A stretch of 64,000 bases of DNA, taken from NCBI GenBank assembly GCA_964016885.1, contig OZ024742.1, positions 110,732,001 to 110,796,000 on the forward strand. The letters run 5' to 3'. Shown piece after piece: positions 13,115 through 14,912 of this stretch (positions within the stretch are counted from its first letter, which is position 1; every line of letters starts with the position of its first letter). Position numbers and translations under genes: made by a program. Below the pieces are notes generated by a model. The model saw only the letters and a program-made list of their open reading frames with translations. It was not told where the DNA came from and searched no databases. The stretch is from Eledone cirrhosa. Lineage: Eukaryota.

Positions 13115-13518
13115 CTATATATATATATATATATATATATATATATATATATATATATATATATACACACCTATATATATATATATATATATACACACAC
13201 ACCTATATATATATACACACAACTATATATATATATATATATAGGTGTGTGTGTATATATATAAATGTATATATATATATATATATATATATATATATAT
13301 ATATATATATATATATATATATATATATATATATATATATATATATATATATATATAAATATATATATATATATATATATATATATATATATATATATAA
13401 ATAAATATATATATATATATATATATAAATATATATATATATATATATATATATATATATATATATATATATATATATATATATATATATATATATATAT
13501 ATATATATATATATATAT
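13115..13518. repeat. Long interrupted (TA)n microsatellite
   Basis: Direct inspection; representative of many (TA)n tracts in the window. Confidence 0.97.
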
Positions 13519-14912
13519 CATAAAACATGTCTATAGAATCACTAGATGAAATATATACCGTTCCCTCTCCCAATTAGTATAATTAAACATATAAAAAATC
13601 AATTAGACCAAGCAATAAGAATAAAGGCTCCTATGAACTAAATCTCCAACAAATAACCGAAAGCAGCCCCTTCGCGGCGGTTACGACGGAGTATTTATCG
13701 AACATTTCGACAGCATCTATAAATCGACCAGATATACAGTCAACTAAACATAATTAGGTGTAAAATAAACTTGGAAGAAATGTGTACATATTTAATTACC
13801 TCTACCATGGTTTCGTCCGTATTTTAAGACATCCGATAACAGGGGACATCCAGAGCTTCGGATTCATCAGGAGTTAGCTCTAATTTAGACAATTAATTTT
13901 CCAAAGTGATCGCGCCAAGAATACATTCAAAAATGGCTAAGAATCGTGACGTGGCAGCCGTCAAGTTAGAAAGGATGTGATTAGTTGCTTACGGCTGGTA
14001 GGTTTATTGCTAGAAAGCGCAGCCCAATACAGCCAAATTGTATCTCAACCAAACGGGAGATTATTACATATAAAGGTTTACATATATGTAAAGTCATATG
14101 GTTAATTATACTAATTGGGAGAGGAAACCGTATATATTTTATCTAGTGATTCTATAGACATGTTTTATGATATATAGCTCTGATTATTTAATTTATTAAT
14201 TCTTCATTGAGCCACAACGTGAACCGTTGCAAAACATATATATCTATGACTTTATATATATGTAAACCTTTATATGTAATAATCTCCCGTTTGGTTGAGA
14301 TACAATTTGGCTGTATTGGGCTGCGCTTTCTAGCAATAAACCTACCAGCCGTAAGCAACTAATCACATCCTTTCTAACTTGAACGCTGCCACGTCACGAT
14401 TCTTAGCCATTTTTGAATGTATTCTTGGCGCGATCACTTTGGAAAATTAATTGTCTAAATTTGAGCTAACTCCTGACGAATCCGAAGCTCTGGACGTCCC
14501 CTGTTATCGAATGTCTTAAAATACGGACGAAACCATGGTAGAGGTAATTAAATATGTACACATTTCTTCCAAGTTTATTTTACACCTAATTATGTTTAGT
14601 TGACTGTATATCTGGTCGATTTATAGATGCTATGGAAATGTTCGATAAATACTCCATCGTAACCGCCGCGAAGGGGCTGCTTTCGGTTATTTGTTGGATA
14701 TTTCTTCACAGGAGCCTTTATTCTTATAGCTTGGTCTAATTGATTTTTTATATGGTTAATTATACTAATTGGGAGAGGAAAAGGTATATATTTCATCTAG
14801 TGATTCTATAGACATGTTTTATGATATATAGCTCCGATTATTTAATTTATTAATTCTTCATTGAGTCACAACGTGACCCGTTGCAAAACGCATATATATC
14901 TATGACTTTATA
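13516..14912 (+). mobile_element. Retrozyme-like non-coding HHR element, family R2 (654-bp unit, ~160-bp direct redundancy, ~580-bp inverted arm)
   Basis: Direct repeats 14096-14256 and 14750-14912; inverted arm 13516-14099; HHR in both orientations; no ORF; (TA)n flanks. Confidence 0.85.
14467..14546 (+). ncRNA. Type I hammerhead ribozyme
   Basis: CTC-CTGACGA-ATCCG...CGGAC-GAAA-C-CATG-G-TA-GAG. Mirror copy at ~13797-13876 has CTGATGA. Confidence 0.85.

Follow-up and report, generated by a model that had tools for sequence, protein, structure and literature searches.

A 654-nt non-coding hammerhead unit in (TA)n, probably a non-autonomous PLE of the retrozyme type

How does a short unit that encodes nothing come to lie in a genome as a little more than one turn of itself in one direction and nearly one turn in the other? 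This question is raised by a locus in a 64,000-nt stretch of Eledone cirrhosa DNA, the whole of which we analysed and refer to as the window, animal DNA that proved to be crowded with Penelope-like elements (PLEs). A preliminary description had recognised an ORF-less hammerhead unit of retrozyme type and had read its 1.25 turns with an inverted arm as the signature of rolling copying. The first part of this description stands, but the second does not, since the arrangement is the standard one for PLEs; indeed, an ORF-bearing PLE fragment in the window also has an adjoining inverted copy of its 3' end. We conclude that the element is very probably a non-autonomous, retrozyme-type PLE consisting of a 654-nt non-coding unit with a PLE-type hammerhead. 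The whole account, in which identity is combined with mobilisation in trans and insertion into (TA)n, we hold with moderate confidence. The basic kind of element is already known, and the 654-nt family is an added member of it.

Layout of the element and its insertion site

On the + strand, the element occupies 14096–14917, that is 822 nt or 1.26 turns of the unit. Its two ends are direct repeats of 166–168 nt (14096–14261 and 14750–14917) that start 654 nt apart and differ by 6 substitutions and one 2-nt indel across about 168 columns. The first repeat corresponds to a 5' pseudo-LTR and includes two TA-like termini, site A (14169–14176) and site B (14253–14261), while the second corresponds to a 3' pseudo-LTR with a tail, and a full unit extends from site A to site A (14177–14830). 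The later site A, GATATATA at 14823–14830, is internal to the + arm and ends both the inverted arm and many other copies. The + arm ends 87 nt further on, at the later site B (14909–14917), and this 87-nt tail (14831–14917) is confined to the + arm; the best alignment with a sister family described below falls in its first ~45 nt. Upstream lies an inverted, 5'-truncated copy without the tail (13512–14098, – strand; 587 nt or 0.90 unit), matching 14245–14830. At site A, the 3' end of this copy merges with (TA)n, and its last 7 nt are indistinguishable from the TA run. A global alignment of this arm with 14245–14830, leaving out four end columns as an end artefact, gave 17 substitutions and one 1-nt indel, corresponding to 3.1%. 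These measurements bear out the proportions given in the preliminary description (about 1.25 turns plus an inverted 0.9 turn, ~160 bp of direct redundancy, and an inverted arm starting ~85 nt before the main 3' end). The arm junction, on the other hand, had been described as ATATG microhomology at 14096–14100. In fact, the two arms are joined head-to-head with an overlap of 3 nt (ATA, 14096–14098), because 14099 and 14100 mismatch the template of the inverted arm; given the local base composition, 6.7% of joins would have an overlap of at least 3 nt by chance.

The outer ends of both arms pass into (TA)n, namely a (TA)n-rich, interrupted tract on the left (13116–13517), the probable insertion target, and a tract on the right (14930–15013). 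One of the LINE-type RT fragments of the window (15016–16590, 19138–20241, 35501–36274 and 37526–37984, with a Pfam RVT_1 match for 19138–20241) starts directly after the right tract. The longest stop-free stretch of the unit is 66 codons in six frames and its GC content is 35%; between the repeats there are 488 nt of non-coding sequence from which an ORF for RT and GIY-YIG is absent. A tblastn comparison of the element with 10 PLE-like fragments of the window returned nothing below E 0.1, and no autonomous partner with shared sequence was found within the 64 kb.

In the published account of PLEs, a partial tandem, an adjacent inverted 5'-truncated copy, a tail often at one end and a (TA)n target are typical, the last of these for the Hydra, Neptune and Naiad clades (Craig 2021, PMC8557442, as far as the accessible text goes). 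Out of seven features tested for a non-autonomous PLE, six were found here: a pseudo-LTR partial tandem, an inverted 5'-truncated copy beside the upstream pseudo-LTR, a (TA)n target, an optional tail at one end, a PLE-type hammerhead, and a unit free of any RT/EN ORF. The seventh is 3' sequence in common with an autonomous helper.

The hammerhead motif

The preliminary description placed a hammerhead in the middle of the unit, and a pattern scan located its core in both arms (14473–14540 on the + strand and 13870–13803 on the – strand). The scan found 15 cores in the window, a count that includes both arms of inverted copies and two weak matches, compared with a mean of 0.03 (maximum 1) in 30 block shuffles. 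In the + arm, the type I motif (14470–14543; N7 = C; predicted cut after 14540) begins with a helix I of 3 bp (14470–72/14541–43) and the core at 14473–79, followed by a 49-nt helix II domain (14480–14528) made up of an A.C mismatch, 4 bp, a 7x7 internal loop and an 8-bp hairpin, and then by GAAA (14529–32) and a palindromic helix III (14532–39). The motif of the inverted arm (13800–13873, – strand) has its core from 13870, N7 = U, a predicted cut after 13803 and a fully paired helix II domain. Among copies of the family, N7 is C, U or A.

The short helix I, long helix II and palindromic helix III agree with PLE-type hammerheads in the available text of Cervera 2014, and the motif lacks the features that define the canonical type I form, namely a helix I of 6 bp, a helix II of 4 bp and loop contacts. 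In both arms there is an A.C mismatch at the helix II base, and the conserved G10.1-C11.1 pair (Cervera 2014) is absent. A G-C pair at this position occurs in none of the 15 strict-scan cores of the window, but in one looser match at 47156; most of the strict-scan cores have a mismatch there (A.C, C.A, U.U or A.A). A U.U mismatch at the helix II base has been described for an axolotl retrozyme (Cervera 2020, PMC7229834, in the part available). Rfam gave no match at gathering across the window, and on the element itself it gave no hammerhead up to E 10, the two matches obtained (E 5–8) being attributable to chance. Constrained folding placed the active fold 7–8 kcal/mol above the local minimum, and as modelled the predicted hammerhead may be weak in self-cleavage.

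We also considered a four-way-junction hammerhead with an extra hairpin between CUGANGA and helix II, a form that would have been new, judged by the accessible part of Eckert 2023. However, folding gave the lowest energy with one long helix II (–8.2 and –12.6 kcal/mol, against –3.6 and –4.5 kcal/mol for the alternative), and the majority letters at 14492, 14496 and 14510 perfect the inner helix II hairpin and break the four-way junction. We therefore rejected this form.

The family and its neighbours in the window

Parts of the 654-nt unit were present in six public runs from three organisms. Copies were examined in four of the nine runs listed (2729 contigs of X1, 48 of X5 and 29 of X6, and 3433 reads of X7); from these data we draw on 24 of the 368 rows for loose ends, 24 of the 2819 pieces and 40 of the 345 rows for variants. 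In X7, 138 of the 3433 reads exit the unit at 14176, the last position of site A, into (TA)n, showing that copies end at site A across the family and can do without the tail; one X6 contig exits at 14830 into (TA)n. The passage from repeat to unique sequence is crossed by an X5 contig (14096–14366) and that from unique sequence to repeat by an X6 contig (14514–14781), and joints reaching back about one unit were seen in X5, X7 and X1. Among the 24 of 368 loose ends listed, most of those within the unit look like diverged versions of it, the exceptions being X6 ends at 14226, 14457 and 14514 and mixed X7 rows, which are too short to show an ORF. According to the preliminary description, the reading would be refuted if other copies had a PLE ORF upstream of 14096 in place of a further unit; no such ORF was seen among the same 24 of 368 rows. 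There may nevertheless be a rare autonomous parent of the family.

At 14292, 14340, 14592, 14626 and 14764, the two arms agree in a letter that few other family members have, and at seven further sites the + arm alone departs from the family letter. Taken together, this points to one source for the two arms, followed by ~1.5% decay per arm. No RNA run was among the public runs listed as carrying the unit, and a metagenome scan with a 26-nt pattern of the element gave 0 matches. Our literature search found no description of the 654-nt family, though the supplements of Li 2026 may include similar families, and none of a non-autonomous hammerhead PLE in molluscs or octopus.

Within the window, a distant sister element at 50855–51612 (nhmmer 12.5 bits, against 0.0 for the best of 200 shuffles) has a 457-nt unit with a similar hammerhead and (TA)n on both sides. 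Its site A aligns with that of the 654-nt element, its second terminus lies near site B, and a tail of ~110 nt is carried by the inverted arm. The letters of its hammerhead differ, while helix I and the palindromic helix III stay paired. The inverted arm runs across the unit junction, and as neither arm is wholly included in the other, neither can be a copy of the other and two primings are required. A further family with a 422-nt unit (3354–4059 on the – strand, and 8537–8996) has a short-helix-II hammerhead and the same design as the 654-nt element, including a 58-nt repeat, a 204-nt inverted arm and a tail of ~55 nt; its main arm begins within 5 nt of the internal terminus, site A. Hammerheads with a helix II domain of 105–116 nt, a helix I of up to 10 bp and a cut site of GUU or GUA characterise yet another family (10633–11673, 62410–62828, 60068–60685 and 27434–28002).

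As for protein-coding PLEs, 58167–59726 (– strand) is a 519-codon part of an open PLE ORF with RT and, C-terminally, a GIY-YIG domain, which appears Neptune-like by its CX4CxxC linker motif. A 98%-identical inverted copy of 56974–57296 adjoins the 5' end of this ORF, and the ORF and 56974–57296 are likely linked through microsatellites, which would make this ORF a control for inverted arms. Directly upstream of the GIY-YIG fragment at 1431–1832 lies its own 3' end in inverted copy. At 1431–2945, 25384–26658, 52673–54300 and 61799–62455 there are RT and endonuclease fragments that resemble the Hydra clade, several of them followed by hammerheads. Several carry a CxCX5C linker, which together with the RT fits a Hydra-clade alignment by eye, and some are located ~1.0–1.3 kb upstream of similar long-helix-II hammerheads; the hammerhead at 60476, from the family with the 105–116-nt helix II domain, follows a Hydra-type endonuclease fragment at 1.3 kb. 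Another PLE family (21232–22306 and 54884–56546) has copies that are 87% alike, GIY-YIG-like ends and inverted copies. Lastly, a transposase-like fragment at 29681–30178 with a weak HTH_32 match is presumably mariner-like, judging by its motifs.

Priming, template and known systems

We propose that an autonomous PLE would supply its RT and GIY-YIG endonuclease in trans to copy the unit into a (TA)n microsatellite. The endonuclease would nick both (TA)n strands, one nick priming reverse transcription at site B to give 822 nt and the other at site A to give 587 nt, with TA homology assisting priming at both sites. Both reverse transcriptions would traverse an uncleaved hammerhead, and the two 5'-truncated cDNAs would then be joined head-to-head across 3 nt. 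The simplest template would be a linear RNA, uncleaved and transcribed from a partial tandem that, like the + arm, is at least 1.26 units long; such an RNA of 1.26 units suffices to explain every base of the element, and to this detail of the template we give about even odds. By analogy, the helper would most plausibly be a Hydra-clade PLE, because a TA target, a 3' hammerhead and a similar helix III are found there. There is precedent for such priming in the Anolis PLE in vitro, where both strands of AT-rich DNA were nicked and extended, two internal initiation sites defined the tail, and uncleaved RNA was used (Frangieh 2024, PMC11167929, as far as its available text extends).

Two adjacencies, found in two of the three elements, hint that the template was longer or circular: the inverted arm has its 5' end (14245) 17 nt past site B, and the main arm of the 422-nt family begins within 5 nt of site A. 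One such template is an RNA circle, for which multimeric master loci would be cut by dimeric hammerheads, the monomer ligated, and the circle read by a PLE RT from sites A and B. The route was proposed in Cervera 2014, whose accessible text offers a circular template as a hypothesis for PLE tandems, and again in Cervera 2020 (PMC7229834, accessible part). In line with it, both arms traverse the predicted site of cleavage, other copies and organisms show both of the unit junctions, the palindromic helix III could pair as an 8-bp dimer helix (predicted –11.2 kcal/mol), and the circular fold is mildly stabler than shuffles (z –2.4, 40 shuffles). Nevertheless, we consider this origin unlikely. A circle is superfluous for every base of the element, each arm has one hammerhead, and neither the helix II base, without its G-C pair, nor the energy of the active fold favours cleavage; moreover, 8 of 9 Xenopus retrozyme dimers were uncleaved (Li 2026, 10.64898/2026.07.22.740005, in the part available). 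A circle would also be expected to give three equal letters at 14140, 14794 and the matching position of the inverted arm. Instead, 14140 has the family letter while 14794 and the inverted arm share a rare one, which argues against a circle, albeit at a single site. Contig depth immediately before site A was several times the mid-unit depth, fitting truncated single copies rather than flat arrays, but this is weak and confounded by conservation. Since there is one hammerhead per arm, in opposite orientations, the locus itself cannot release a monomer by double cleavage, and a read-through transcript would, as modelled, fold into a long hairpin that is more likely to be a silencing trigger than a source of circles.

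A broader version of the longer-template reading, to which we likewise give only a minor share of belief, would be that several unrelated high-copy mini-PLEs were inserted by PLE proteins priming at two conserved TA-like sites on one RNA, circular or of two units and more. As part of it, the hammerheads of these mini-PLEs, with a mismatched helix II base and a helix II of up to 116 nt, would escape Rfam and, by their length, also the short published descriptors. If true, the genome itself would offer direct evidence that PLE reverse transcriptases use retrozyme circles as templates, and that the tail is determined by internal sites resembling the target.

The same adjacencies could reflect twin priming, which is known from L1 inversions. 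Here, on one linear RNA of at least 2.1 units, the arm started at site A would be extended until it met the primer at the previous unit's site B, and the arm starting there would extend further upstream. The 17-nt distance at 14245 is as expected, and so is the start of the 422-nt main arm at site A with a 5-nt overlap. However, the sister element lacks such adjacency (overlaps above 130 nt), the two of three elements that fit can each do so in either order, and no dimer locus was seen; we therefore regard this reading as improbable.

We put even less trust in fold-back, in which the 822-nt cDNA would have looped onto itself over 3 nt and copied itself as far as site A. The + arm does contain the whole of the inverted arm, the rare letter shared at 14794 would fit, and the window has many near-perfect palindromes whose loops are tiny. 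Such palindromes of element ends, with loops of 0–20 nt, occur at 10633–11673, 62410–62828, 48826–49220, 56547–56918 and 8160–8423, which suggests that fold-back priming is a second route to inverted copies in this genome. For the 654-nt element, however, a 146-nt loop closed by 3 bp would be required, and the sister element, whose inverted arm spans the unit junction and carries the tail, would be left unexplained. Least credible of all is a stack of 5'-truncated 3' ends left by an autonomous PLE, or else an artefact of assembly, for although 5'-truncation is usual in PLE insertions and such structures trouble assemblies (Craig 2021, PMC8557442, accessible text), both closed-unit junctions recur in other copies and two other organisms, 18 columns differ between the arms and thus exclude a read-level duplicate, and no coding remnant was found.

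Thus, we retain priming at sites A and B by a PLE helper as the preferred reading. So far, retrozymes have been proposed to be PLE parasites from homology and co-occurrence. That a hammerhead unit without an ORF, together with two more families in the window, bears the complete insertion signature of PLEs supports mobilisation in trans by anatomy. The gain is incremental because the basic kind of element is known. In practical terms, abundant units of this small size, with their two TA-like start sites, lend themselves to tests of how PLE tandems and inversions are templated, where circular, multimeric and twice-copied linear RNA are to be told apart, and the hammerhead variant implies that standard searches undercount such ribozymes.

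Compared with animal non-LTR retrozymes, the element is likewise non-coding, of low GC (the class being below 45%) and high in copy number, with a type I hammerhead. In contrast to their at least two consecutive hammerhead-bearing units, however, the locus has 1.26 units with one hammerhead per arm, not a dimer or multimer, and it combines a hammerhead of PLE type with full PLE insertion marks. The preliminary description held the unit to be larger than most metazoan non-LTR retrozymes. This is true with respect to animal units of about 300 nt (Cervera 2020, PMC7229834), but not with respect to retrozymes of ray-finned fish, which range over 51–972 nt with a mean of 650 (Li 2026, bioRxiv 10.64898/2026.07.22.740005), so that 654 nt is not unusual. 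In their accessible parts, both papers propose retrozymes to be non-autonomous PLE derivatives, and Li 2026 argues that non-autonomous PLEs and non-LTR retrozymes form one class.

With EN+ PLEs, especially those of the Hydra clade, the element has in common the pseudo-LTR, the inverted copy, the one-sided tail, (TA)n and a near-3' hammerhead, and the helix III of Hydra-1_oBim, a published element with a (TA)n preference (Craig 2021 supplement, PMC8557442, in the part available), is nearly identical to that of the element. It differs from them in lacking an RT/EN ORF, such as an autonomous PLE has between its pseudo-LTRs, in its tail of 87 nt compared with the published 30–40 nt (Craig 2021, PMC8557442), in its 49-nt helix II domain with a mismatched base, and in showing no sequence link to a named family. 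A Naiad parent, considered by way of 'HHR_half_core' (35–50-nt spacing), received no support; the Naiad consensus text of the Craig 2021 supplement did not show the helix III motif in the sense searched, within the limits that line breaks and mismatches set to such a search. Chlamys MRC1 (Craig 2021) is, as far as described in the available text, also an ORF-less PLE derivative with pseudo-LTRs, but it belongs to green algae and shares 3' sequence with autonomous families, which was not found for the 654-nt unit. A mechanistic parallel may be drawn with PAc, the Poseidon element of Anolis (PMC11167929, accessible part), where two internal RT start sites also set the tail and the target is likewise AT-rich. 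PAc is autonomous and its start sites are not homologous to the target, whereas both sites of the 654-nt element are TA-like; in PAc, hammerhead cleavage is unneeded, as it would be in our reading of the 654-nt element.
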